Positions 3,338 through 61,852 of a stretch of DNA of 64,000 nt are shown here, in pieces. The DNA is from Minisyncoccota bacterium. Its GTDB lineage: Bacteria; Patescibacteriota; Minisyncoccia; Phycocordibacterales; UBA9973. Within the stretch, counting starts at the first letter, position 1, and each line of letters opens with the position of its first letter. A program made the translations under genes and the position numbers. The stretch is from contig DATDXF010000016.1 of assembly GCA_036517215.1 (NCBI GenBank), positions 3,175 through 67,174 on the forward strand, in the 5' to 3' direction. Under the pieces are notes generated by a model. That model saw nothing but the letters and a program-made list of their open reading frames with translations, had not been told where the DNA came from and searched no databases.

Positions 3338-3435
3338 TTATTGCTCTTATTATATAACAAAGGCTGTTTTTAACGAAGCAAATTGTGTATAACTTCCCCG
3401 ACAAGTACCTCACCCGAAATATATACACCCGATAA

Positions 3436-4563
3436 TTACTGCAACTTTCTGAGTGCCAAGCCGAGTGCCACGGCAAATTCCGGACCCATGTTGGTAAGTA
3501 CCTTATTTAAAAACGCCGGAGCCTCAACTTTTGAAAAGGGATGCCCTATTTCTATTTCCGCTTTAAAATTATTTGTGGCGACTTCGGGAAGTCCCTTTAG
3601 AAGCGAGCCGCCTCCGGTAAATATTACCTTACTGATGGTGCGACCATGCTTCTTCTCGTACCCCAAGAGCACGTTATTTGTTTCGGAAAAAATATAATCG
3701 ACATGCACCCTGATGATATCTGCCAAATTTTTATCCGCGGGATTCCCGAAAAGACCGAACTCTTTTTTCATCTTCTCCGCATCTGTGAACGGAATACTTA
3801 AGGATTTGGAAATAGAGTTTGTGATATCCGCTCCTCCGCGCTCTACCGTGTGGTAATTTTTCACCATCCCGAATTCTACTATCGTCAGCTTGGTCCGCGA
3901 AGCACCGAAGTCGATCAAGAGCACAGGGGAAAGCTCGTGCTCAAAATTAGCGCGAATGGAAGAAAAAACTTCAATTTCAAAAAAGGACGCGGAGAGACCG
4001 CAGCCGGATACAATGGAACGGTATTTTGCAACCGCATCGTTCTGCGTGGCAACCACCAGGACATTTACTTTTTCTGCCACACCCGGAGAAGCTTCGGCGC
4101 TGTTCATGTCTTCAAAGGAAGATTCTTTTTTGGGCAATATGAAATAATCTATGGAAACTTCGTTGACCGGAAGCGGTATGTATTTGCGCGCCTCAGTAGG
4201 GACTACGGAATCTATCTCGGCCACGGTTACCTGCGCAGGAAGCTCAATCGTAAAAATCAGGCTTGACTGCACAGGAATGGAAAGAGCGGGAGAACTCGCT
4301 GTCGCGCCGGACTGTTTTAGAATTTCCTTCAAAGCCAAAATAATTTTTTCAACCGGCGGATTTGTAACCCGTCCGGCTTCCATTTCGTTATAGGGCCCCA
4401 AGGCAATGGAGCCGTATGTTTCAAGGACCGCTTTACTGCCCTTCTTTTTTATCTCAACGATTTTAATCGCGGAAGACCCTATATCAATGCCGATAGCTGT
4501 GCTTTCCCCTCCGCGACCCACAGAGCCGAAGCCGGAAAAAAGATTTTTCAATAGATTGCTCAT
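3436..4563 (-). CDS. pilM: Type IV pilus assembly protein PilM (actin-like ATPase fold)
   Basis: 375 aa; IGIDIGSSAIKIVEI N-terminal motif and overall actin/FtsA-like pattern typical of PilM; first gene of operon. Confidence 0.8.
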   Translation of the reverse strand: MSNLLKNLFSGFGSVGRGGESTAIGIDIGSSAIKIVEIKKKGSKAVLETYGSIALGPYNEMEAGRVTNPPVEKIILALKEILKQSGATASSPALSIPVQSSLIFTIELPAQVTVAEIDSVVPTEARKYIPLPVNEVSIDYFILPKKESSFEDMNSAEASPGVAEKVNVLVVATQNDAVAKYRSIVSGCGLSASFFEIEVFSSIRANFEHELSPVLLIDFGASRTKLTIVEFGMVKNYHTVERGGADITNSISKSLSIPFTDAEKMKKEFGLFGNPADKNLADIIRVHVDYIFSETNNVLLGYEKKHGRTISKVIFTGGGSLLKGLPEVATNNFKAEIEIGHPFSKVEAPAFLNKVLTNMGPEFAVALGLALRKLQ

Positions 4564-16458: not shown

Positions 16459-16544
16459 GGAGAGATGGGTGAGTGGTTTAAACCAACAGTTTACTAAACT
16501 GTCGTCCCCTAAAAGGACCGAGGGTTCGAATCCCTCTCTCACCG
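16459..16544 (+). tRNA. Type II tRNA with apparent anticodon ACU (Ser-like; G73 discriminator, 3-bp D-stem, 17-nt variable arm), CCA not encoded
   Basis: GGAGAGA-TG-GGT-GAGTGGTTTAA-ACC-A-ACAGT-TTACTAA-ACTGT-CGTCCCCTAAAAGGACC-GAGGG-TTCGAAT-CCCTC-TCTCACC-G; acceptor 6/7 (A3:A70 mismatch). Confidence 0.6.
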
Positions 16545-16589
16545 CATTGACAACTTAGTATCGGTGTGTCCTTGTTGCTTATGGCAACA

Positions 16590-16611
16590 GTGCGACCCGA
16601 GTATGTAAAAT
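16590..16611. repeat. Left copy of imperfect direct repeat GTGCGACCCGA-GTAT-GTAAAAT (attL-like)
   Basis: 11-mer GTGCGACCCGA plus GTAT..AAAAT shared with 21721-21761; abuts recQ stop codon. Confidence 0.45.
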
Positions 16612-18422
16612 CATTTAAGAAAAATTCTAGCTAAACGTAATTCTTCATATGAATAATCCTCCCCCAGAATTTCACGTACAGGAGCCAATAAAATACCACC
16701 AGTTTTTTTAAATGCTCCTGTGATTATTTCAAGTCTTTCATTTGAAGGTTTTAAATATGAAATATCTAATTGTGAATCAGTGGCAAAAATTTTTTCAATA
16801 TGACTCACGATGGTGCTGATAGACAATCCACGTCTTTTTGTTATTTCATCGATAGAAAACTTTTGCAGTACTAATTTTTTGGTTTCATCAAAAGTTGAAC
16901 CAGTATATGTGGATTTTGTTTTCGCTTCCGTTTTATAAGTTTCTACATATTGATTAATAACAGACATAAACTTTCCTCCGAACTGCAAAAGTTTCCTATC
17001 TCCGACTCCGCTGATTTCCAAAAACGCCTCTCTAGTCCGTGGAAAATGAGTTGCCATTTCGCGCAAAGCTTTATCTCCGAAAATCATATATGGCGGGAGT
17101 TTTAATTTAGACGCCTCTTGTGTTCTTATTTTCCTTAATTCTTCAAATAATATAGAGTCATATGCTTTATTTTCACTAGAGATATAGGTTCGTGGTCTAA
17201 CAACCTTAAGATTTACTCTATATGTTTCTAGCGGAGTTTGCGCTACGCATCTATCGCAATTTCCACAATTTGCCTCCTTGTATTCTTCATTGAAATAGCG
17301 AAGTAAAAATCTACGACGACACCCCTGGAGATTCCCATATCGTAAGACATATTCTAAATTTTCTTGTGTTTTTTTCTGTTCTGCCGCATCCGCTATATCC
17401 TGTATAAAATAATCATGCTTAAATTTATCGGCATACGAGAAAAATAAAACACACTGTGCAGGCAATCCATCGCGTCCCGCTCGACCAGTTTCTTGATAAT
17501 ACCCTTCAACTGACTTTGGTAAGCTGTGATGAATGACAAGTCGCACATCAGGCTTATCTATCCCCATACCAAACGCAATGGTCGCAACCATAATATTAAT
17601 TTCATCTCGGATAAATTTCTCTTGGTTATCTTTTCTCGTTTTTGAATCCAGACCAGCATGATAGGCGGCAGCTTTGAATCCACGATCGTTCAATTTATTT
17701 ACTAGTGTTTCCGTATCGTTGCGGGAAAAACAATATATAATTACACTCCCATCTCGATATTTGTTTAGTAACGCAAGAATTGACTTAAAAGAATCCTTTT
17801 TTGGCAAGACTTCATAACTCAGATTGGGACGATTAAAACTGGAAATAAAAATTTGAGGACTTTCTAGGCTCAGTTGTTTTACGATATCTTCACGCACTTT
17901 TTCTGTAGCAGTGGCAGTAAGTGCAATAATCGGAATTATAGGAAATTTCTTTCGCAATAATTTTAAATTCCGATAATCAGGCCTGAAATCATGTCCCCAT
18001 TCTGAAATGCAGTGAGCTTCATCAATAGCAATCAAACTTATTTTTAAAGTATGCAAGAAGTCTTCAAACCCCGGCACAGCTAATCGTTCAGGAGCTATAT
18101 ATAAAATTTTTAATTTCCCTGTTTTAGCTTTGTCCATAATACTGACAATTTCTACTGGAGAAAGTGTGCTGTTGATAAGGTCAGCCGTGATGCCGTTTGT
18201 ATGTAGGGCATCAACCTGATCTTTCATAAGGGAAATAAGCGGAGAAATAACAATGGCAATGCCTTCCATCATAAGTGCGGAAAGCTGGAAACAAAGAGAT
18301 TTTCCTCCGCCTGTCGGCATGAGCACGACGCAATCCTTGCTCTCCAATACTCGCTCAATAATTTCTTTCTGAAGCGGTCTGAATTCTTCGTATCCGAAAT
18401 ATTTTTTCAATATATCTTTCAT
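16611..18422 (-). CDS. recQ: ATP-dependent DNA helicase RecQ
   Basis: 603 aa; DEAH box, CISEWGHDFRPDY, zinc-binding CxxC...CxxC, RQC and HRDC-like C-terminus. Confidence 0.85.
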   Translation of the reverse strand: MKDILKKYFGYEEFRPLQKEIIERVLESKDCVVLMPTGGGKSLCFQLSALMMEGIAIVISPLISLMKDQVDALHTNGITADLINSTLSPVEIVSIMDKAKTGKLKILYIAPERLAVPGFEDFLHTLKISLIAIDEAHCISEWGHDFRPDYRNLKLLRKKFPIIPIIALTATATEKVREDIVKQLSLESPQIFISSFNRPNLSYEVLPKKDSFKSILALLNKYRDGSVIIYCFSRNDTETLVNKLNDRGFKAAAYHAGLDSKTRKDNQEKFIRDEINIMVATIAFGMGIDKPDVRLVIHHSLPKSVEGYYQETGRAGRDGLPAQCVLFFSYADKFKHDYFIQDIADAAEQKKTQENLEYVLRYGNLQGCRRRFLLRYFNEEYKEANCGNCDRCVAQTPLETYRVNLKVVRPRTYISSENKAYDSILFEELRKIRTQEASKLKLPPYMIFGDKALREMATHFPRTREAFLEISGVGDRKLLQFGGKFMSVINQYVETYKTEAKTKSTYTGSTFDETKKLVLQKFSIDEITKRRGLSISTIVSHIEKIFATDSQLDISYLKPSNERLEIITGAFKKTGGILLAPVREILGEDYSYEELRLARIFLK

Positions 18423-20542
18423 ATAAGTGAATTACTCTTTAATTTTTTATAAAATTTTTTTCGCTTTTTAAATTGATGATTGAGAAATTCTATCTTCTCG
18501 TCGTGAAAATCAATAATTTGTTTTATGCCTTCTCCGCGAAGTCTGCCGATATATTGTACCAGTTTTCCTTCAAACGAAAATGGAAATGCAAGCACTATCG
18601 TATCAACGCCGTGCACATCAAATCCCTCGCCGAGCAGTTGTCCGGTGGCAAGGAGCACTTGAAAGTTGCCTGCTTTAATTTGGTCAAATTTTATCTTTCT
18701 GGAACGCGCGCTATCGTCGCCAGAAACAGTAATGATTTCGGTTTCACCCCGCAGATATAAGTTGAGTATTTCAATATGTTCTTTGCGCTCGGTAAGCACC
18801 AGGACTTTTCTTTTTGATTTTATTTCCCTAAGAATTGCTTGTACCACCAATTCATTTCTCGCAGAGTCAAACGAAATCACTTTTGCAAGTGCTTCATAGT
18901 GATCTATTTTATAGCGAAACGGCAGAGTGATTTTTGTCGGATGAATGCTTACCTCAAATGTTTTGTTGTCTGACATATTAAAAGATTTTATTTCAGCAAT
19001 AACTGGTCCAATCATAAACTCAGTAATTTTTTCGCTTCCATATTTTCGTTCATGAGTTGCTGTAAGTCCAAAGCAATATCTGCTTTCCAGTAACATAATC
19101 AATTCCCTGTATGTTTTTGCGGGAATGTGATGACACTCGTCAATAATTATTACACCGAAGGAATTCTTAATTTCTTTTAAGTTTTTATATCTCATAAGAC
19201 TTTGTAGTGTAGCAATTGTGACTTGTTTTCCAATCTTTTTTCGTGTCCCCGAAATCGTCCCAATCTGCGTTTTTGGAATGCCTAAAAATTGTTCTGTGCG
19301 TTCAACCCACTGGGAAAGCAGTTGATTTCGATTTACAAGAATAAGTGCGGGTAATTCGAGGCGCGCTATGATTTCTAGGGCAATGACAGTCTTTCCAAAT
19401 CCGGGCGGCGAGACAATAATGCCATTTGTTTTATTTTTAATAATTTCAAGTATTTTTTCTTGTTCTTTTCGAAGTGTAATACTGCTCTTAAACTTTATAA
19501 CTTTATGTTTTTTATATTCTTCTATGACTTTATAAGTAATATTTTTCTCTTTAAGGTAATTTGTCAGTTTTTCAAGAAAACCTCTGGGAAGCGAGATCTC
19601 ATCCGTGCGATCTTGTATTAAGTTGAAATATTTTTCTATGCCAAATACGGATTTACCCAGTTTCTTTTTTGTAGCATATTCCTTGTTAAAAAGATTAAGC
19701 TCTTCTTTTATAAATGAACTAATTACTGATGAAATTTCCTGCTTCTTAATCCGTATCGAGCCATCCAAAACAATATGTACGCAAGAATTATTCAGTGGTT
19801 GTTCATCAGTACCACTGTGTGCAAATAAAAAATCATAAACAGAATCTAATTCTTGAGCCGTGTGTTTATGGCTTGTTTTTAAAAATTCCCATTGATTATG
19901 GTATGGGTTAAAGTTATCATAAAAATAAAATAAAGAAGCATTATGCTTTACGCATTCGCCCTGAAGCGGTAATGCGATTAAATTGCCAAACCCGCCTTCA
20001 GTTATAGTATCTTGGTTTGGAAATAACCGATCAAAACTAACTTCTTTTGCAAATTCAGAATAACCAAAAACCTTTCTTATGATTTCCAGCAAAATAGCTC
20101 GTGACTTCCAGCATGGATATTTTTCTTCAAAGAAAATCCACACGTGGGCGCCATTTCCTGAGCGGGAAATTTCTGTATATGCTTTTAGATTTAGGTTAAT
20201 GCATGCACTCATAAATTTCTGGCTGTCAGTTTTCCAGTCTGCCTCATCAAAATCAGCAACAATAAAATAAGAAGTATTGTCAGGAAGTATTGGATATATG
20301 CCAATAGTTTCTTTGCCTAAAAAATGATTTAGTAAAGTCTCGTCCGTAAGTGGAATTAATTTTTTATTTTCAAAATCTTTTATTGTTCCACCCCTTGCCC
20401 TGTGAGCATTGAACTCATTCCAATCAAAGGAGTACGCGGGAGACCAGCCGCTTTTATCATTTTTTTGCCACCGTCTGGCATAAACATCAGTACGAGCATT
20501 AAAAAGATTATGGTAAATGGTCAGCTTTTCTTGGTTCGTCAT
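18419..20542 (-). CDS. Fusion protein: N-terminal archaeo-eukaryotic Prim-Pol domain + C-terminal SF2 (ResIII/DEAH-type) helicase
   Basis: AEP motifs I (FIVADFDEADW), II (SGNGAHVWIFF), III (FDRLFPNQ...GNLIALP); then Walker A PPGFGKT, DECHH, LTAT, HELICc-like QYIGRLRGEG; stop overlaps recQ start (4-nt). Confidence 0.7.
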   Translation of the reverse strand: MTNQEKLTIYHNLFNARTDVYARRWQKNDKSGWSPAYSFDWNEFNAHRARGGTIKDFENKKLIPLTDETLLNHFLGKETIGIYPILPDNTSYFIVADFDEADWKTDSQKFMSACINLNLKAYTEISRSGNGAHVWIFFEEKYPCWKSRAILLEIIRKVFGYSEFAKEVSFDRLFPNQDTITEGGFGNLIALPLQGECVKHNASLFYFYDNFNPYHNQWEFLKTSHKHTAQELDSVYDFLFAHSGTDEQPLNNSCVHIVLDGSIRIKKQEISSVISSFIKEELNLFNKEYATKKKLGKSVFGIEKYFNLIQDRTDEISLPRGFLEKLTNYLKEKNITYKVIEEYKKHKVIKFKSSITLRKEQEKILEIIKNKTNGIIVSPPGFGKTVIALEIIARLELPALILVNRNQLLSQWVERTEQFLGIPKTQIGTISGTRKKIGKQVTIATLQSLMRYKNLKEIKNSFGVIIIDECHHIPAKTYRELIMLLESRYCFGLTATHERKYGSEKITEFMIGPVIAEIKSFNMSDNKTFEVSIHPTKITLPFRYKIDHYEALAKVISFDSARNELVVQAILREIKSKRKVLVLTERKEHIEILNLYLRGETEIITVSGDDSARSRKIKFDQIKAGNFQVLLATGQLLGEGFDVHGVDTIVLAFPFSFEGKLVQYIGRLRGEGIKQIIDFHDEKIEFLNHQFKKRKKFYKKLKSNSLI

Positions 20543-20550
20543 ACATAATT

Positions 20551-21600
20551 TTATTTCTTCTTATACCTCGTCGTTCGTCCCTGCCCGATGCGTTCCACTT
20601 TTTTCAGCCGTAGAAGAGTATTGAGTGCTTGCGATACAGTAGGGCGTGCAACTTTAGTGACTTTTGAAATTTCACCAGGCGTTGCCTCCGGCACTTTTAA
20701 GAGATATTGCCACACTAAAAGTTGTTTCGGAGAAAGAAGTTTCTCAATATTTTCTTTTGATAATAATTCAATTGCTTGCCTTGCTTGGGTAAGTAGAGCA
20801 GTGAAAAAGAATTCAAGCCATGGCATAATATTTGAGTTGTCAGTTTTTAAAGTTTTCTGGCTTTTACGAAGAGCTATGTAATATTCCGCTTTATTGTCTT
20901 CAACTAATTTCTCATGCGAAACATATGGCATATATGCATAGCCGGCCTTGAGCATCATTAAATTTGTCAGCACACGAGAAAGCCTGCCGTTACCATCTTG
21001 AAAAGGATGAATGTTTAAAAACTCTACGAGAAAGTTGCCGATAATAATGATTGGATGAATTTCTTTTATAACAACGGCTTCTCTTGTCCACTCTACCAAC
21101 TCAAGCATTTCTTTCGGCGTAAGCCACGCAGGTGTAGTATCAAATAATACGCCAATAGATTGACCAGCTTCATTCACCATTTCAACCCTGTTTTCACCTT
21201 TTTTATATTCACCTCGGTGAAGTTTATCTTTCTCAACATATTTTAAAAGTTCTTTATGAAGATGCTGAATACTGCTTTCTGAAAATGGTATCTTGTCATA
21301 AGAGTTGAATACGTTTTCAAGCAGTTCATAGTATCCTCGCACTTCCTGCTTGTCCCGATCGGTGAATTTTTGCATAGAAAGACCACGCATCATTTTTTCG
21401 ATGTCTTCATCGGAGAGCTTAGCTCCCTCGATACGAGTTGATGCACCAGTTGATGTAACTAAAACCGAACGCTTCAACCGTCCAAGTGCCTGTGGATTTA
21501 TTTCCGCTCCACCAATCCATCTGCCTTTTAATTCATCAATTTGATTGATGAATGCCCATAAATTTTGTGGTATATTTTCAATGCGTTTATTGTAGTTCAT
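20551..21600 (-). CDS. Fic/Doc family protein with C-terminal winged-HTH
   Basis: Canonical Fic motif HPFQDGNGRLSRVL; C-terminal wHTH-like segment; 8 nt upstream of Prim-Pol-helicase gene. Confidence 0.8.
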   Translation of the reverse strand: MNYNKRIENIPQNLWAFINQIDELKGRWIGGAEINPQALGRLKRSVLVTSTGASTRIEGAKLSDEDIEKMMRGLSMQKFTDRDKQEVRGYYELLENVFNSYDKIPFSESSIQHLHKELLKYVEKDKLHRGEYKKGENRVEMVNEAGQSIGVLFDTTPAWLTPKEMLELVEWTREAVVIKEIHPIIIIGNFLVEFLNIHPFQDGNGRLSRVLTNLMMLKAGYAYMPYVSHEKLVEDNKAEYYIALRKSQKTLKTDNSNIMPWLEFFFTALLTQARQAIELLSKENIEKLLSPKQLLVWQYLLKVPEATPGEISKVTKVARPTVSQALNTLLRLKKVERIGQGRTTRYKKK

Positions 21601-53739: not shown

Positions 53740-54081
53740 TTAGAATTCTAATCCCGAGGCGCGCGCCTCATCCGCTACTAATTTTATGCGTCCGGTATAT
53801 TTGAATCCGTTCCGGTCAAAAACGACTTTTTTTATTTTACCGCCTATTGCCGCCGCCGCTATCATCTTGCCTACTTCCTTGGCTCTTTCTGTTTTTGTTC
53901 CCTTGGTTACTTTAACATCGCTAGCCTGCGCCAGGGTCTTGCCGGTCTCGTCATTGATAACCTGCGCGTAAATAAATTTATTTGAACGAAAAACAGTCAG
54001 GCGCGGACGGGCTTCGGTCCCTTTTATCTTTGTTCGAATCTTTTTCTTTAGCCTTATTCTTTTGTCGGTTTTATTTTGCAT
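53740..54081 (-). CDS. rplR: 50S ribosomal protein L18
   Basis: 113 aa. Confidence 0.9.
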   Translation of the reverse strand: MQNKTDKRIRLKKKIRTKIKGTEARPRLTVFRSNKFIYAQVINDETGKTLAQASDVKVTKGTKTERAKEVGKMIAAAAIGGKIKKVVFDRNGFKYTGRIKLVADEARASGLEF

Positions 54082-54098
54082 ATGTTTTACTGTCTATA

Positions 54099-54656
54099 TT
54101 ATACGGTCTTCTTGCCCTGCTTGCGTCTTATAACCTCGCCTTCGTAACGCATTCCTTTTCCTTTATATGGCTCGGGCTTTTTTAGGGCGCGAACTGCGGC
54201 AGTAAAACTTCCGACTAGTTCTTTGTCGATTCCGGTAATCGTAATATTATTTTTCTCGGCAGTGGCGGTAATGGTGTCGGGAATAGGTACGATGACAGGG
54301 TGAGAAAATCCTAAAGCAAAATGCAATTCTTTCCGCTGACCATTAACTTTGACCTCGGACTTGAATCCCACTCCTTCTAAAATCAATTTCTTTTGGTACG
54401 GAGTCTGTACTCCGGCAATCATGTTTTTTATATGCGAAGCGTATGTGCCCCAAAGAGATTTGGAGAATTTATCGTTGCGCTTTATATTCAGGGCTACCGC
54501 CTTTTCCGTAATGTCTATGGTTATGTCATCGCGAAAAATCTTTGAAAGAGAGCCTTTTGGGCCTGTCACCGTAACAACCACGCCATTCTGACCTGCATCT
54601 TTGGTGACTTTCACGCCGCTCGGTATTAAAATTTCCTGTTTGCCTATTCTGCTCAT
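54099..54656 (-). CDS. rplF: 50S ribosomal protein L6
   Basis: Start corrected to MSRIGKQ (ATG 54654-54656); track start at 54698 would overlap rpsH. Confidence 0.85.
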   Translation of the reverse strand: MSRIGKQEILIPSGVKVTKDAGQNGVVVTVTGPKGSLSKIFRDDITIDITEKAVALNIKRNDKFSKSLWGTYASHIKNMIAGVQTPYQKKLILEGVGFKSEVKVNGQRKELHFALGFSHPVIVPIPDTITATAEKNNITITGIDKELVGSFTAAVRALKKPEPYKGKGMRYEGEVIRRKQGKKTV

Positions 54657-54672
54657 AATATTTATGTAATGA

Positions 54673-55059
54673 TTACCAAATTCTAAATAGCGCTTCACCC
54701 CCTACTTGTTCTTTGCGCGCTTCTTTGCCTGATAAAATTCCCTTTGGGGTCGAAAGCACAAGGAGTCCTGTACCGTTCCTGACAGAATGTATGTCTTTCA
54801 TCCCGAAATACACTCTCCTTGATTGTTTTGAAATTCGCTCAACTTCCGCTATTTTCGGCTTTTTGTCCACATACACCAGCCCGACCTCGAGCACGGGCTG
54901 TCCTTTTTTAACTTTCTTGGATACTTCGGACACATAGCCGGCCTTTTTCAGACATTCGCCTATGGCGTTTTTCATGTTGGAGTACGGAATTAAAACAGAC
55001 TCCTTTCCGGCCAGGCTTCCGTTCTTCATTATTATTATCATGTTTGAAATTGAATCCAT
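54673..55059 (-). CDS. rpsH: 30S ribosomal protein S8
   Basis: 128 aa. Confidence 0.9.
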   Translation of the reverse strand: MDSISNMIIIMKNGSLAGKESVLIPYSNMKNAIGECLKKAGYVSEVSKKVKKGQPVLEVGLVYVDKKPKIAEVERISKQSRRVYFGMKDIHSVRNGTGLLVLSTPKGILSGKEARKEQVGGEALFRIW

Positions 55060-55078
55060 ATAAATTTATTTTAAACTA

Positions 55079-55264
55079 CTACCAGCTTGATTTACGAACA
55101 CCCGGAAGCATTCCTTCGTTTGCTAATTCCCTGAAACATATTCGGCAAATACCGAAGTCGCGCATAAAAGCATTTCCCCTGCCACAACGAAAACACCTGT
55201 TTTTCTGCCTGGTGGAAAATTTTTGTTTCTTTTTGCTTCTTGCTATAACTGATGTTTTTGCCAT
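55079..55264 (-). CDS. rpsZ: 30S ribosomal protein S14 type Z (zinc-binding)
   Basis: 61 aa; CFRCGRGNAFMRDFGICRIC. Confidence 0.9.
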   Translation of the reverse strand: MAKTSVIARSKKKQKFSTRQKNRCFRCGRGNAFMRDFGICRICFRELANEGMLPGVRKSSW

Positions 55265-55335
55265 CCCAGTACTAAAATTTTAATTAATAAACTTTGTCTT
55301 TATGCCCCGTAATCAAAAATTTAGTACGGGACAGG
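55265..55335 (-). promoter_or_regulatory. Conserved ~70-nt leader upstream of rpsZ (near-identical copy of rpmI leader)
   Basis: Minus-strand reading CCTGTCCCGTACTAAATTTTTGATTACGGGGCATAAAGACAAAGTTTATTAATTAAAATTTTAGTACTGGG-ATG; 4 mismatches vs 37188-37257. Confidence 0.55.
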
Positions 55336-55488
55336 TAAATAATAAATCGGGAGTGCTCCGCTAATATCTCACTTTTTTTCTCCGAACCTCTAATTATTAG
55401 AGCGTCGGAGGAGAAAAATGGATTAAGCGGAAACTGCTTCCCTTGTTGAGAATATTAGCAGATTAACCCTAAAGAGTCAACCTTGGAG

Positions 55489-55926
55489 CTACTTACAGTT
55501 GGGTACAGAATTCCAGCCGGCGTACCCAAGGCTTCCAACCACTATTTTGCACCAGCCGGGAACTGCATCTGTTTCGAGCTGCACAAGCATGGTATATCCT
55601 TTTGTTCTATCGGTATACCAATATCGATATCTATCACTTCTGGTGCGCGTCGGGTCTTCCGGAAGAGTTGCGATATACTTTGGCGTTAATCCGACTACTG
55701 CGTATACAAAAGAAGTAGTCGCAGAAGGGTACGTATTGTTGTCATTATAAAAGATTTCTGTTGCAGTGACGATTTGGCGCAATTCTACTAACCTTTTAGC
55801 ATCTCTAGCTTTTGCCCGCGCGGTATTTAAGCTTGCCATAACAACGCTAGCCAAAATGCCGATGATGGCAACGACTACCAAAAGTTCTATTAAGGTGAAT
55901 GCTCGGTTTGTTGATTTAATATCCAT
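55489..55926 (-). CDS. Type IV pilin (prepilin-type N-terminal cleavage/methylation domain)
   Basis: MDIKSTNRAFTLIELLVVVAIIGILASVV class III signal peptide; 145 aa. Confidence 0.8.
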   Translation of the reverse strand: MDIKSTNRAFTLIELLVVVAIIGILASVVMASLNTARAKARDAKRLVELRQIVTATEIFYNDNNTYPSATTSFVYAVVGLTPKYIATLPEDPTRTRSDRYRYWYTDRTKGYTMLVQLETDAVPGWCKIVVGSLGYAGWNSVPNCK

Positions 55927-55942
55927 TTATTATGATGGGATC

Positions 55943-56335
55943 TTAATTTATTTTATCAATTTCTAGTTCTGGCGGCGATTCGGTGCTGGGTCCGCTTTTT
56001 AAAAATATAAAAAGAGATACAACAATAGCCAGCACCACAAATCCCAAGAGCACATATTCCGCCTGCCTCTCTTCCTTGATCGCTCCACCGGACCATTTCG
56101 TAACTAATTGCACCATTTTCGGAGTAGCCGTTTCTTTATAATATTTTACCGCTCCATAACTTGGGGTTTCAAACTTCACGCCTTCCACTGCATGCTTTGG
56201 CTCAATAATATTACTTTGCTGAATGACTTTCCCGGGCTGCCCATTTGCCGAAGTATTCCCAAACTCTTCTAGCGCTTTCTTTATCTCTTCGTTTCCCTCT
56301 AGATTCAGATCGTCCATGGTAGTATTATACAACAT
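55943..56335 (-). CDS. Hypothetical protein with C-terminal TM anchor (start uncertain: ATG 56335 or 56317)
   Basis: Track start at 56350 is TTG abutting a terminator; TGtTATAAT-like -10 just upstream of ATG 56317. Confidence 0.4.
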   Translation of the reverse strand: MLYNTTMDDLNLEGNEEIKKALEEFGNTSANGQPGKVIQQSNIIEPKHAVEGVKFETPSYGAVKYYKETATPKMVQLVTKWSGGAIKEERQAEYVLLGFVVLAIVVSLFIFLKSGPSTESPPELEIDKIN

Positions 56336-56350
56336 TTTAAAATATATCAA

Positions 56351-56380
56351 AAAAACAAAAAATCCCCCGCCAGAGGCGGG
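56351..56380 (-). terminator. Rho-independent terminator (CCCGCC-TCTG-GCGGG + T-run on minus strand)
   Basis: Downstream of AbrB-like gene. Confidence 0.6.
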
Positions 56381-56413
56381 CAGGCCTCTACGGGGAACTT
56401 TGGGAGGAATTTT

Positions 56414-56596
56414 TTACTTCTTCTTTTTAGTCTTCGCGTCAATAATAGAGACACCGCGAGCAACACGCTTTACCAGAACTCTTTGCTTCTCCCGCCAGCC
56501 GAGAGAGCGCATGATTTCAGCCGGAATTACTATTGAAAAAGATTTTGCTCTGCCGACTCTTGTTATTTTTCTAATTGAATTTATTGGTCTTGCCAT
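56414..56596 (-). CDS. SpoVT/AbrB/MazE-like swapped-hairpin DNA-binding protein
   Basis: 60 aa; ITRVGRAKSFSIVIPAEIMRSLGWREKQRVLVKRV. Confidence 0.55.
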   Translation of the reverse strand: MARPINSIRKITRVGRAKSFSIVIPAEIMRSLGWREKQRVLVKRVARGVSIIDAKTKKKK

Positions 56597-56623
56597 ACTT
56601 TAACTGATGAGTTAACTCAGTAA

Positions 56624-57022
56624 TTAATTTCTTGTTTTTAATTCTATTTCCTCTTTTTGTAAATCAAATTTAACAATAAAATTTTCAAAAAATCCTTTTT
56701 GCCCGACGAGGCCATATGGCATTACTCTGCCGGCAACATCAGGCATAAAACCTACTTCAGCTTTATGCGTCCACCCTCCTACTTCAATTTCAATACTATG
56801 CAAATAGTATAAAGAGACTTTTCCTCCAACTCCAAATACCTCACGGGGTTTACCTTTAGAAATATCAAGACCGAGCGCTTCACCAACTTCTGAATGAAAA
56901 AGACAAATATCGGCCCCTGAATCAACCAGGGCCTCATAAAGAAGAGATCTGTGATTTGATTTTAATTTAATCTCTATAACAGGTCGTAGCGCTAAACCGT
57001 ATTTCTGATAGTTGAATTTCAT
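56624..57022 (-). CDS. Retropepsin-like aspartic peptidase (clan AA)
   Basis: 132 aa; LVDSGAD catalytic motif (D-S-G-A). Confidence 0.6.
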   Translation of the reverse strand: MKFNYQKYGLALRPVIEIKLKSNHRSLLYEALVDSGADICLFHSEVGEALGLDISKGKPREVFGVGGKVSLYYLHSIEIEVGGWTHKAEVGFMPDVAGRVMPYGLVGQKGFFENFIVKFDLQKEEIELKTRN

Positions 57023-57213
57023 AGAGCCCCAACATAAGCATCTAAGGTTTTTGGCATTCGGCTAAAAATAGGGGAATTATACCCTTTTTTAAAAGCTTGG
57101 TTCATGGCTTCTTTGAGAGTTTTTCCACTTCCCACCACAGTATCTCTGTCATCAGCAAGTGCTACCCAAAGACCTTTATATTTATTGAACATTTTCGTTC
57201 GATCTTTCACCAT
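57019..57213 (-). CDS. Small hypothetical protein (DUF5678-like pattern), translationally coupled to the protease
   Basis: 64 aa; KYKGLWVAL...GKTLKEAMNQAFKKGY; ATGA overlap with downstream ORF. Confidence 0.45.
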   Translation of the reverse strand: MVKDRTKMFNKYKGLWVALADDRDTVVGSGKTLKEAMNQAFKKGYNSPIFSRMPKTLDAYVGAL

Positions 57214-57250
57214 ATTTTAATTATAGCAAACAAATAGTAGAAAGCAAAAA

Positions 57251-57832
57251 CTACTTCTTCTTACTGTCTTCTTCTGTCTTGAAAGGCACCCCTAAGAGCT
57301 CAAAAAATGCTGTTCCTTCTTTGATATTTTTGGCGGTAGAAACCAGAGTAACAGACATCCCGAAAATATCTCGGATATCTTCATCGGCTGTTTCAGGAAA
57401 AATGGTGTGCTCTTTTATGCCTATCGTCAGGTTTCCTATGTTGTCCACCGCCTTGCGGGAAATTCCACGGAAGTCTTTGGTGCGGGGTAAAGCGACATTT
57501 ATAAGTTTTTCAAGGAAGGCGAACATTCTTTTCCCTCGGAGTGTTACGGAAACTCCCACCGGGTCGCCTTGACGAATCTTGAAAGAAGAAATTGACTGCT
57601 TGGCTCCGCGCAGAGTCGTCTTTTGCCCGGTTATTTTTGCGAGCCTGTCGGCAACAGCGTCATTTTTATTTTTGTCTTTCTTTATCATTGTGCCGGTGCC
57701 GACATTGATAACAACCTTTACCATCTTGGGCGCTGCCATTTTGTTCTTATACCCGAAGACACTTTTTAATCTCTCAAAAGCTTCTCCTTCTTTTTCTCTG
57801 ACTGTTAAATTTTCCGTTAAATGTTTTGTCAT
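57251..57832 (-). CDS. rplE: 50S ribosomal protein L5
   Basis: 193 aa. Confidence 0.9.
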   Translation of the reverse strand: MTKHLTENLTVREKEGEAFERLKSVFGYKNKMAAPKMVKVVINVGTGTMIKKDKNKNDAVADRLAKITGQKTTLRGAKQSISSFKIRQGDPVGVSVTLRGKRMFAFLEKLINVALPRTKDFRGISRKAVDNIGNLTIGIKEHTIFPETADEDIRDIFGMSVTLVSTAKNIKEGTAFFELLGVPFKTEEDSKKK

Positions 57833-57842
57833 ATGTTTTTAT

Positions 57843-58064
57843 TTACTTATCTGCTTTTTTGGCGTTTGAAGCGTTTATAGGCATGGCAATACTTATCATG
57901 GAGCCCTTTTCCCCGGACTTTCTAGGCCTCTGGTGCTTCTTCATCATGTTCAAGCCTTCCACGACAATTTTGTTTTCTTTGGGTAAAACACGGATAATTT
58001 TACCTTTTTTACCCTTATCTTTGCCTGCTATCAATATTACGTTGTCATTTTTTTTTAATTTCAT
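57843..58064 (-). CDS. rplX: 50S ribosomal protein L24
   Basis: 73 aa KOW motif. Confidence 0.85.
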   Translation of the reverse strand: MKLKKNDNVILIAGKDKGKKGKIIRVLPKENKIVVEGLNMMKKHQRPRKSGEKGSMISIAMPINASNAKKADK

Positions 58065-58077
58065 AACTTTATACTAA

Positions 58078-58449
58078 TTAAATCACCTCCTGTGCCAAGG
58101 AAATTATCTTTTGAAATCCCTTCTCGGCTAATTCCCTTGGTATTGGCCCGAATACACGGCCAGCCTTCGGGTCTTTTTTGCCTTTTTCCAGGATAACCAC
58201 GGCGTTATCGTCAAAACGAATATATGAACCGTCTTTTCGTCTGTAGGCGCCTCTCGTGCGCACGACGACAGCCTGATGTACGTCTTTCTTCTTGACTCCT
58301 TTGCGGGGGCTTGCAACTTTAACCGAAATAATAACCAGTTCGCCTAAGGTCGCATATCTCTTTTTGGAAGAGCCTAAAATCTTGAACACCTTTCCTACGG
58401 TGCCTCCGGCGTTGTCTGTTATTTTTACCAATGTTTCGTTTTGTATCAT
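58078..58449 (-). CDS. rplN: 50S ribosomal protein L14
   Basis: 123 aa. Confidence 0.9.
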   Translation of the reverse strand: MIQNETLVKITDNAGGTVGKVFKILGSSKKRYATLGELVIISVKVASPRKGVKKKDVHQAVVVRTRGAYRRKDGSYIRFDDNAVVILEKGKKDPKAGRVFGPIPRELAEKGFQKIISLAQEVI

Positions 58450-58540
58450 GATTAATTTTACTGAGCGAAGCGATTATAAAATAATCACCCTGTTAAATCC
58501 GCTTCGCGGCGCCCTTTGGGCGATTTAACAGGGTCGGGTC

Positions 58541-58837
58541 TCAGACGACCCGAAACCTTTTGTCTTTGGAAATCGGCCTGGTTTCCACTATTTCTACTTG
58601 GTCGCCAACTTTATATTTATTTTCCTCGTCGTGCACCTTGTATTTTTTGCTGACTTTGTAAAATTTTCCATATAGAGGATGTTTGATGAAACGGGAAACC
58701 GATACCACAATAGTCTTGTCCATCTTATCGGAAACAACCACGCCCTTTAAAACGTTCCCTTGCCTACCGGTAGGCAGGCCTTTGTTTTCCTTATTTCCTG
58801 CCTGCGCAGGCAGGTCTTGTGCCTTTTTTGTTGTCAT
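58541..58837 (-). CDS. rpsQ: 30S ribosomal protein S17 (with ~27-aa N-terminal extension encoded by two GC palindromes)
   Basis: Core [14 protein letters not shown]...; extension LPAQAGN / LPTGRQGN encoded by CCTGCCTGCGCAGGCAGG and TGCCTACCGGTAGGCAGG. Confidence 0.85.
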
Positions 58838-58846
58838 ATATTTATC

Positions 58847-59038
58847 TTACTTAGATTTCATTTGGGTTAAAACTCTTGCAATCTGTTTCTTTAGGCTGCC
58901 CAGTTCTTTTACGTTCTTGGACCTGGACCCCTCGGCTTTAAAATTAATCAAGCGTACTTCTTCGCGTAAAGCCGTGAGCTTCTTTACAAGCTCCCCTTCT
59001 TTCATATCTTTTAAATGATCTTTCTTTGTTTTAGCCAT
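58847..59038 (-). CDS. rpmC: 50S ribosomal protein L29
   Basis: 63 aa. Confidence 0.85.
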   Translation of the reverse strand: MAKTKKDHLKDMKEGELVKKLTALREEVRLINFKAEGSRSKNVKELGSLKKQIARVLTQMKSK

Positions 59039-60980: not shown

Positions 60981-61077
60981 GGTTATTTTCTCTCGTATAA
61001 ACAAAACGGCTCTCATTTGAGCCTTAAATCATACTAACAAATTCAGGAAATAAGTCAAATAAAAGAAATAAAAGGAG

Positions 61078-61442
61078 AACGGAGGGCCGTCGCGTCGCGA
61101 AGGCCCTCCATTGGGGACTGGTTCATAGAACCGGTCCGGGGATGATTGGGCGTAGAAGCCCAGTGGGATGGGTGGAGAATCACTTACTGCGCCGTCCTTG
61201 CGCTATTCGGTGTCCTCCGGCGGGAAGGGTTCAACGGATGTTCTCGGACCCCGACGTCCAGGTCAGTAACTGATCCAACTGCCCGTCGAATGTAGGAACC
61301 CCCACCGACAGTTGTACGTCTTCTTTCGAATGTACAACCGAATTCTCTCTTCGTGGCGGGCGTTCCGGTTCCCTCTAGTGCTCATTGTGCATGGCTCCTT
61401 CTTTGGCGAGCTATCGCTATAGTCCTTCGCCTTCGTTAGGGA
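61078..61442. other. ~360-nt GC-rich (~57-68% GC), ORF-free, stem-loop-dense block between rpsS and rplB; candidate structured RNA
   Basis: Perfect hairpins GGAGGGCC-N13-GGCCCTCC, GACTGGTTC-ATA-GAACCGGTC, GGGC-GTAGAA-GCCC, GTTGTAC-N13-GTACAAC; no ORF >=60 aa in any frame. Confidence 0.4.
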
Positions 61443-61572
61443 TTATATCATACATATTAAAAAAGTCAATGTCAAGATGTTGATAAATCTTGTAAAAATA
61501 AAAAAAATCCCTCCGTGGGAACTTGTGAATCCTGTGTATTAAAAATTAATTTTTAGGACTACAAAGTGAAAA

Positions 61573-61588
61573 GGCGTCGATTGACGCC
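61573..61588 (-). terminator. Rho-independent terminator GGCGTC-AATC-GACGCC + TTTTCACTTT (minus strand)
   Basis: 26 nt after stop of the 39-aa ORF. Confidence 0.6.
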
Positions 61589-61614
61589 TTCGGTGGATGG
61601 AGAGAAAAGCTATG

Positions 61615-61734
61615 CTACTTCTTGAAAACCCGGCCGTTGTACGACTTGCGTGGCGGCGGAGCCTTTACCTTGACGGCGTTGGCGACGTTTTTCGAGTTAG
61701 CTTTCTGCTCCCGAATCAGTTCTCGAAGTGCCAT
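61615..61734 (-). CDS. Candidate small protein (39 aa: MALRELIREQKANSKNVANAVKVKAPPPRKSYNGRVFKK)
   Basis: GGAGAATGTACATC-ATG Shine-Dalgarno, followed by terminator; below the ORF-track length cutoff; inside the rplB-rpsS spacer. Confidence 0.4.
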   Translation of the reverse strand: MALRELIREQKANSKNVANAVKVKAPPPRKSYNGRVFKK

Positions 61735-61803
61735 GATGTACATTCTCCTCACAAATATTATAACATTTTTAAAGAAAAAAGCAACAAAAAATCCCTGTAA
61801 CGA

Positions 61804-61843
61804 GAAAGGCCCGGCCTTCGTAAATACGAAGGCCGGGCCTTTC
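61804..61843. terminator. Perfect 17-bp GC hairpin GAAAGGCCCGGCCTTCG-TAAATA-CGAAGGCCGGGCCTTTC with flanking A/T runs (bidirectional)
   Basis: 10 nt after rplB stop. Confidence 0.7.
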
Positions 61844-61852
61844 TTTATTTTC

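Follow-up and report, generated by a model that had tools for sequence, protein, structure and literature searches.

What are five additional genes doing inside a ribosomal protein cluster? Such clusters are the gold standard of conserved synteny and serve as phylogenomic markers for uncultivated bacteria, and the adjacency of rplE and rpsN/Z is among the most conserved in bacteria generally. The stretch of DNA analyzed here (64,000 nucleotides [nt], hereafter the window) comes from a “Candidatus Nomurabacteria” bacterium, a groundwater member of the Candidate Phyla Radiation with a tiny genome. In it, a gap of 1986 nt lies between rplE (L5; 57251-57832; Pfam and NCBIfam L5, 6e-59) and rpsZ (zinc-type S14; 55079-55264; NCBIfam type Z S14, 7.8e-30), with exactly five open reading frames (ORFs), all on the minus strand, as are the other features of this junction described below. 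A first-pass annotation, made from the letters alone, had listed them as a DUF5678-like small protein translationally coupled to a retropepsin-like protease, an AbrB/MazE-like protein followed by a terminator, an anchored protein, and a type IV pilin. This inventory was confirmed by the ORFs, by Pfam and NCBIfam searches, and by the same five-gene order in at least six independent metagenome assemblies, so the contig is not chimeric. The coupling (a 4-nt overlap, ATGA) and the terminator also stood. Overall, we think that the 2-kb segment is cargo lodged at a boundary between transcription units and not a functional extension of the ribosomal operon, and we assign to this reading a probability of about 0.7.

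The window L5 was compared with those of 80 species labeled “Candidatus Nomurabacteria,” Paceibacterota, or Patescibacteria (66 to 87% identity), among which the distance from rplE to rpsZ ranged from 139 to 4258 nt. As a control, all 16 junctions from rplB to secY were measured in the same loci (51 to 79 related species). Fourteen of them never exceeded 324 nt. The other two were rplE-rpsZ, longer than 300 nt in 38 of 68 species (maximum of 4230 in this control), and rplB-rpsS, which behaves alike (38 of 51 species, maximum of 2805). The first-pass annotation had taken rplE-rpsZ as a conserved adjacency, and this fails within the clade; its other proposal, that the insert is accessory and variable rather than universal housekeeping, was borne out by the synteny comparison. 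The filled junctions, found in about half of the related species, hold from one to six unrelated genes. Some of the cargo is of a housekeeping type (guanylate and cytidylate kinases, TruB, and alanyl-tRNA synthetase), RsmE, MgtC, dCTP deaminase, and NUDIX are also present, some of the cargo is of a toxin-antitoxin type (PemK with MazE, and the SocA/Panacea antitoxin), and some relatives carry a reverse transcriptase (RVT_1) with bAvd, i.e., a diversity-generating retroelement. We also found 17 ORFs with a prepilin motif at this position (16 in 11 related loci plus the one in the window), and the family of the window's membrane protein was present in about 14 loci. Filled and empty states are interleaved on a neighbor-joining tree of five flanking ribosomal proteins. 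The rplE-rpsZ junction is a clade-wide and boundary-specific hotspot inside the ribosomal supercluster, of which the window is one instance. It resembles the hotspots of accessory and defense genes that lie between core genes in having one fixed junction with differing cargo (toxin-antitoxin modules, a diversity-generating retroelement, pilins). However, it is located inside the S10-spc ribosomal cluster, it also takes up housekeeping genes (kinases, TruB, alanyl-tRNA synthetase), and it has no recombinase.

This last point bears on the idea that the segment is either a recent mobile element or genomic island, which a transposase or site-specific recombinase would have integrated, or an artifact of assembly. 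That the content differs between close relatives would agree with mobility. However, scans of ORFs, families, and tRNAs found no integrase, transposase, recombinase, or tRNA in or beside the 2-kb segment, and the only direct or inverted repeats flanking it were short matches at chance level. Neither is the composition atypical, with a G+C content of 0.37 to 0.44 from which the flanks are not distinct. Viral contigs scanned with the protease profile yielded no relatives, and a search against PHROGs gave nothing beyond weak antitoxin-like and pilin matches. Besides, the membrane-protein/pilin pair found at this junction elsewhere is only 38 to 40% identical, as expected of an old resident, and an assembly artifact would not recur identically in six assemblies. 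We consider a recent mobile element or a chimera to be extremely improbable.

The explanation seems to lie in the way the cluster is divided. Upstream of rpsZ, the window has a putative promoter (P3, TTGACT-17-TAATAT with a TG extension, 55452-55480). Its general form, TTGACT-17-TAnnAT, was always present before rpsZ in the loci of the clade that were examined, and none of 31 aligned relatives deviates from the TGnTAnnAT element. In unfilled loci, a promoter (TTGACT-17 nt-TAGTAT, with the TG extension) is located within a few bases of the rplE stop codon, and about one-third of them have a terminator hairpin between the two; by a strict criterion, a perfect-stem terminator lies within 130 nt after rplE in 30 of 78 loci. 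In more distant lineages (L5 ca. 52% identical), rpsN/Z is preceded by a promoter and a short hairpin but not by the structured leader described below, which indicates that the boundary is older than the leader. The other expandable junction looks similar. At rplB-rpsS, the window has 836 nt (61017-61852) in which neither a convincing ORF nor an Rfam family above threshold was seen. Before rpsS there is a promoter-like sequence (61031-61058, TTGACT-16-TAGTAT) and a small, covarying hairpin with a U-run (60999-61025, AAGGCTCAAATGAGAGCCGTTTTGTTT), both conserved at this place in most relatives. The remaining ca. 740 nt may be decayed cargo. It should be noted that the true start of the listed rpsS ORF is probably the second ATG (M13). 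On the sequence evidence, the S10-spc cluster of Nomurabacteria and related Paceibacteria is organized in three blocks: one ending in rplB, one from rpsS to rplE, and one from rpsZ to secY. Since rplB-rpsS also has a conserved promoter and leader, the cluster appears to consist of three units in which extra DNA is tolerated only at the two boundaries. An insertion between the rplE stop codon and the rpsZ promoter would disturb neither unit, and this would be the reason why about half of the relatives carry extra genes there.

The distal block also begins with a structured RNA. Downstream of the rpsZ promoter there is, in Nomurabacteria, a leader of about 110 nt, located in the window at 55338-55462 (93 bits, E = 7e-18 with a covariance model built from 31 sequences). 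The model gave 71 matches, with a single forward match per locus, always immediately upstream of rpsZ; the leader was found in 68 related genome loci, 6 further loci, and the window. The pairing is well supported, with compensatory changes at 17 of 20 pairs and 95.6% of the cells paired, versus 42 to 57% when the partners were slid, and none of 500 shuffles reached the observed values. No Rfam 15 family matches the leader; a permissive Rfam search of 54000-59000 gave no match, and at gathering thresholds the whole window yielded tmRNA and tRNAs and nothing else. Between the leader and the gene, the lineage of the window has an extra hairpin of 70 nt (55265-55334, from the minimum free energy fold) that pairs with the region of the rpsZ start codon; the fold of 55250-55450 has -63.3 kcal/mol (z = -5.9). 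One other locus (L058) has a comparable extra hairpin between leader and rpsZ.

The core of this leader (55421-55424 paired with 55363-55368) is probably a mimic of the binding site of ribosomal protein S8 in helix 21 of the 16S rRNA. The determinants of that site, shared by helix 21 and the spc operator of Escherichia coli, include an invariant A642 and A-U/C-G variation at 596:644 (PMC4176348). In the leader, the core reads 5'-N R U C-3' paired with 5'-G A [U A] Y N'-3'. Counting the core columns in 69 leaders, at the positions equivalent to those of the E. coli 16S, we found U598 and C599 in 69 of 69, G639, A640, and A642 each in 67 of 68, and U641 in 63 of 68, whereas the pair at 597:643 is A-U or G-C and that at 596:644 is A-U, G-C, or C-G. 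The leader therefore has the U598-A640 and C599-G639 pairs, the bulged U641, A642 (A55365 in the window), and Watson-Crick pairs at both 597-643 and 596-644. In the alignment of 31 sequences, this S8-like register pairs 96.6% of the cells, with no unpaired cell at columns 48:111 (AU 17, GC 12, CG 2) or 49:110 (AU 28, GC 3). The register proposed by RNAalifold (A49:U108) was dropped, since the S8-like one pairs every sequence. The position also fits, as the leader always lies between the promoter and rpsZ-rpsH, that is, in the mRNA that encodes S8. As in the E. coli operator, there is an mRNA helix inside the spc cluster with the U-A and C-G pairs, the bulged U-A with the invariant A and two covarying flanking pairs, and the S8 gene is downstream in the same unit. 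In E. coli the operator sits at the start of rplE, whereas here it precedes rpsZ, directly after a dedicated promoter. Three features speak against S8 recognition. Position 595, where a purine forms a base triple with 596-644, is mostly U (U 49, C 11, A 8, G 1), the 597:643 equivalent is A-U instead of G-C in 65 of 69 leaders, and there is an extra bulged base between the equivalents of 638 and 639. Our prediction is that the leader is a target of S8, whose gene (54673-55059) is one gene downstream, and that S8 in this way exerts feedback on the translation of rpsZ, rpsH, and the genes that follow. The E. coli spc operator would be its analog, with the leader located one gene further downstream. 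A 2024 review described spc regulation in Bacillus subtilis and other species as still unknown, and likewise the regulation of the distal spc genes outside Gammaproteobacteria (PMC10931766), for which the leader provides a testable candidate answer.

If the flanks belong to different units, the five genes could still have been drawn into one of them. The first-pass annotation had treated them as a single insertion, with the pilin coregulated with growth rate through the ribosomal operon. Such cotranscription, which would couple both pilin and protease to growth, has in its favor that all five genes are oriented as the ribosomal genes and that the window has no terminator between rplE and the first promoter of the segment (P1), nor between the pilin and P3. 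For this reason, transcription may continue from the ribosomal genes into the segment, and this weighs against a clean separation, as does the fact that promoters, leaderless starts, and termination were read here from consensus sequences. However, an intrinsic terminator (56349-56395, a hairpin of -27.7 kcal/mol, z = -4.2, followed by the U-run UUUUUUGUUUU) separates the AbrB gene from that of the membrane protein and splits the segment into two modules, namely DUF5678-protease-AbrB and membrane protein-pilin. Each one has its own conserved -10 box, they occur separately in relatives and at nonribosomal sites, and rpsZ has a universal promoter of its own, together with the leader. The single insertion did not survive this comparison, the growth-rate coupling of the pilin is not supported, and we regard cotranscription with the ribosomal operon as very unlikely. 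Both modules would instead be transcribed from their own promoters as leaderless mRNAs. P1 (57220-57247, TTGCTT-16-TATAAT with a TG extension; putative) begins 4 nt past the rplE stop codon, with 6 nt between the end of its -10 box and the DUF5678 ATG, from which a leaderless mRNA is predicted; this geometry is repeated in five unrelated contexts of the DUF5678-protease pair. In the second promoter-like sequence (P2, 56324-56350; putative), 6 nt likewise separate the TATAAT from the start codon of the membrane protein, and in most of the ca. 17 homologs examined the -10 box is mostly 6 to 7 nt before the ATG. Such boxes (57220-57213 and 56329-56315 in the window, and in homologs elsewhere) suggest that the first genes of operons are commonly leaderless in these genomes.

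The first module opens with the DUF5678 protein (64 amino acids [aa]; 57019-57213; Pfam PF18929, 1.5e-8, above the cutoff), whose gene overlaps by the 4 nt mentioned that of the aspartic protease (132 aa; 56624-57022; Asp_protease_2, 4e-8, 34.3 bits versus a cutoff of 24.3). The protease has the D-[ST]-G-A signature in the form of a DSGAD motif that is invariant in 43 homologs, and its AlphaFold2 model (pLDDT of 90) is a single-lobe retropepsin beta fold, for which the best PDB matches in Foldseek were the proteases of HIV-1, FIV, and EIAV (probability of 1.0, TM of 0.5 to 0.68). We detected 336 homologs; the 120 matches listed all have from 131 to 136 aa and identities of 63% or more, and the named organisms among them belong to Paceibacterota/Patescibacteria. 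With HIV-1 protease, the RVP domain of Ddi1, and bacterial Asp_protease_2 proteins it shares the DSGA and LVG (hydrophobic-hydrophobic-Gly) motifs, the single-lobe fold, and a size of ca. 130 aa. Unlike them, it is free-standing and cytoplasmic, with no polyprotein, ubiquitin-like, or membrane domain, and it has an obligate partner gene coding for 64 aa. The detected DUF5678 homologs are mostly 62 to 72 aa long, and the model of the window protein (pLDDT of 86) is alpha-beta-beta-alpha-beta with a conserved C-terminal tail, P54...YVG, and had no match in the PDB. Two giant matches of the DUF5678 profile among 1.84 billion representatives are cadherin-repeat proteins and look spurious.

The association of the two genes, anticipated at first pass, is complete. 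Metagenomic loci were fetched with the protease profile (80 loci, 75 of them with enough upstream sequence), and DUF5678 was directly upstream of the protease in 75 of 75. They form an obligate, translationally coupled pair that moves between contexts and is widespread in Paceibacterota/Patescibacteria. In 14 of the 75 loci, the pair lies after rplE and before rpsZ/N, and some of these lineages have an L5 that is only 51 to 55% identical; elsewhere its neighbors include ComM, RNase III, RNase Y/HU, PNPase, and adenylate kinase. The recurrence at the ribosomal junction, even in distant lineages, could reflect a functional link instead of a permissive site. In that case, the pair would be a translation-linked housekeeping module whose position after rplE is selected and not merely tolerated. 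The protease might process, or control the quality of, a protein of the ribosome or of RNA processing, and DUF5678 might serve as its adaptor or be a substrate; there is a parallel in Firmicutes, where the Prp protease is encoded between rplU and rpmA. The recurrent RNA- and nucleotide-related neighbors just listed would suit this role, as would the very high conservation, with the length fixed at 131 to 136 aa, and a protease identity that roughly tracks that of L5 among the junction copies. On the other hand, the pair occupies this junction in only 1 of the 80 closest species, its neighbors scatter (237 ORFs fall into 157 clusters), and in every context examined it has its own promoter. Neighbors of this kind are also expected by chance in genomes dominated by information-processing genes, and no N-terminally extended candidate substrate was identified. 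We consider a selected, housekeeping position unlikely, although less so than the other alternatives.

Taking the pair as cargo, we weakly favor a protease with its cognate inhibitor, in a module resembling a toxin-antitoxin or defense system; the protease would act as a homodimer, as in retropepsins, and DUF5678 would be the inhibitor or partner. As in type II toxin-antitoxin systems (MazEF, AbrB-type VapBC), the genes are small, adjacent, overlapping, apparently cotranscribed from a promoter of their own, and found in variable contexts. In the sublineage of the window, an AbrB/MazE-fold protein lies beside a palindromic operator-like motif, and in relatives the same junction also holds PemK-MazE and Panacea modules. 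The differences are not minor. The AbrB gene occupies the last position instead of the first, most copies of the pair lack it, and the conservation is far above the usual. To our knowledge, retropepsin-like proteases are not among the known toxin types. Several observations argue against the toxin-antitoxin or defense character: both proteins are conserved to an unusual degree, the protease being still 60 to 68% identical where L5 is only 51 to 55%, the pair is single copy in the window, a scan of viral contigs with the protease profile gave no phage relatives, and DUF5678 has no recognizable DNA-binding or antitoxin fold. Comparison with the candidate defense systems of PADLOC was equally two-sided. 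All 43 proteases tested matched PDC-M08B (best 1.2e-9) and 15 matched PDC-M52B, but the window DUF5678 matched the A component of neither PDC-M08 nor PDC-M52, its 56 homologs gave no match to that of PDC-M08 either, and the systems themselves are only candidates. The literature searched held nothing relevant on DUF5678 or on retropepsin-like proteins with toxin-antitoxin systems and did not mention PDC-M08. A protein annotated as PIN_3+DUF5678 looks like a fused call of two adjacent genes and was not used as evidence of a toxin-antitoxin system.

The third gene of this module codes for an AbrB/MazE-type DNA-binding protein of 60 aa (56414-56596; Pfam MazE_antitoxin 4.5e-6, above the cutoff; TIGR01439 3.7e-4, below it). 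Just before its start there is a conserved motif (56601-56621, ACTGAGTTAACTCATCAGTTA) in which two 12-nt palindromes overlap (ACTGAGTTAACTCAT(C/G)AGTTA). The motif is present at the AbrB start in four loci (the window, L028, L098, and L096), in single copy in the window and with a second copy in L098, upstream of the promoter of the pair. The TGAGTTAACTCA-type motif (ACTGAGTTAACTCATGAGTTA) is a putative operator for AbrB, which in the sublineage of the window would act as a transcriptional regulator through it. The suggestion at first pass that the three genes are a toxin-antitoxin or protease-regulated module is plausible as a likeness, but AbrB is not an obligate member. It follows the pair in the window, L028, and L098 only, and the other contexts examined lack it. 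In L096, the closest relative, the motif and the last AbrB codons are kept (3385-3450, aligned with 56596-56626 of the window) and the body of the gene is missing, indicating that AbrB was lost by a clean internal deletion. AbrB genes also occur at the junction in layouts resembling other toxin-antitoxin modules, as illustrated by L051 (6620-8369), where a Panacea-domain gene and a 126-aa ORF are followed by a 75%-identical AbrB gene and an overlapping ORF of 218 aa.

Within this clade, the second module is the least unusual part of the insert. Its first gene codes for a single-pass membrane protein (124 aa; 55943-56317) with an N-terminal cytoplasmic part, a C-terminal transmembrane helix, and no Pfam match. 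We place the start at the ATG at 56317, giving 124 and not 135 aa, because the gene callers and the conserved promoter geometry agree. The family has 97 homologs of 85 to 150 aa, none with a Pfam match, and those with an organism name are from Paceibacterota/Patescibacteria; they share an N-terminal N-x-E-I-x-x-A-L-K-E-F, a juxtamembrane segment, and the helix. The second gene codes for a type IV pilin or pseudopilin (145 aa; 55489-55926; N_methyl 2.4e-8, with matches to the N termini of GspG and PilA). It has a class III signal peptide (...NRA/FTLIELLVVVAIIGILA, of the G/F-T-L-I-E type with Glu at +5 and a hydrophobic helix; TIGR02532, 32 bits versus a cutoff of 16) and two C-terminal cysteines. 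Position -1 is Ala in the window and Gly in the 16 related junction ORFs. Eight nucleotides separate the stop codon of the pilin from the -35 box of P3. All four contexts looked up, and about 12 genome loci, have a pilin gene immediately after that of the membrane protein; two of the four are at rplE-rpsZ and two elsewhere. Since the homologs at the junction are only 38 to 40% identical to the window protein and the pilin always follows, the pair must be an old and frequent resident. It is a conserved pilus accessory module of two genes and the commonest cargo of the junction. We saw no pilus machinery genes among the 10 large window ORFs scanned, nor a second pilin among the ORFs scanned. In one Minisyncoccia locus (L175, 3087-4805), the module is tandemly duplicated between smpB and ftsH.

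The locus is more interesting as a pattern of the clade than as a single insertion. Two junctions of the Nomurabacteria cluster are open, promoter-bearing boundaries that collect cargo, with consequences for how contigs are binned, markers extracted, and operons predicted in these lineages. The DUF5678/retropepsin and membrane-protein/pilin pairs are compact, conserved, and uncharacterized modules in hosts whose biology depends on pili and few genes, and both are suited to heterologous expression. It is possible, if rather doubtful as a whole, that several of these proposals hold together. DUF5678 and the free-standing retropepsin would then be a new two-component proteolytic class (a toxin with a partner of novel fold, or a processing protease of the ribosomal cluster), the rpsZ leader would be the first S8-type operator outside Gammaproteobacteria, and S10-spc would consist of three promoted units with their boundaries as the sole insertion hotspots.

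The window has other notable features. Within the distal block, rplO (L15, 52768-53070) codes for only 100 aa and has no Pfam match in public gene calls, and there is no rpmD (L30) between rpsE and rplO; both are in line with the reduced ribosomes reported for the Candidate Phyla Radiation. Farther away, a RecQ-like helicase, an AEP-TOTE primase-helicase (TOTE conflict system, 1.6e-78), and a Fic/DOC protein are encoded side by side (16611-21600, minus strand) in what is probably a defense island. On the plus strand (16459-16545), ARAGORN detected a tRNA-Ser with the unusual anticodon ACT (Rfam tRNA, 54 bits), which adjoins a tRNA-Ser(GCT) on the opposite strand.

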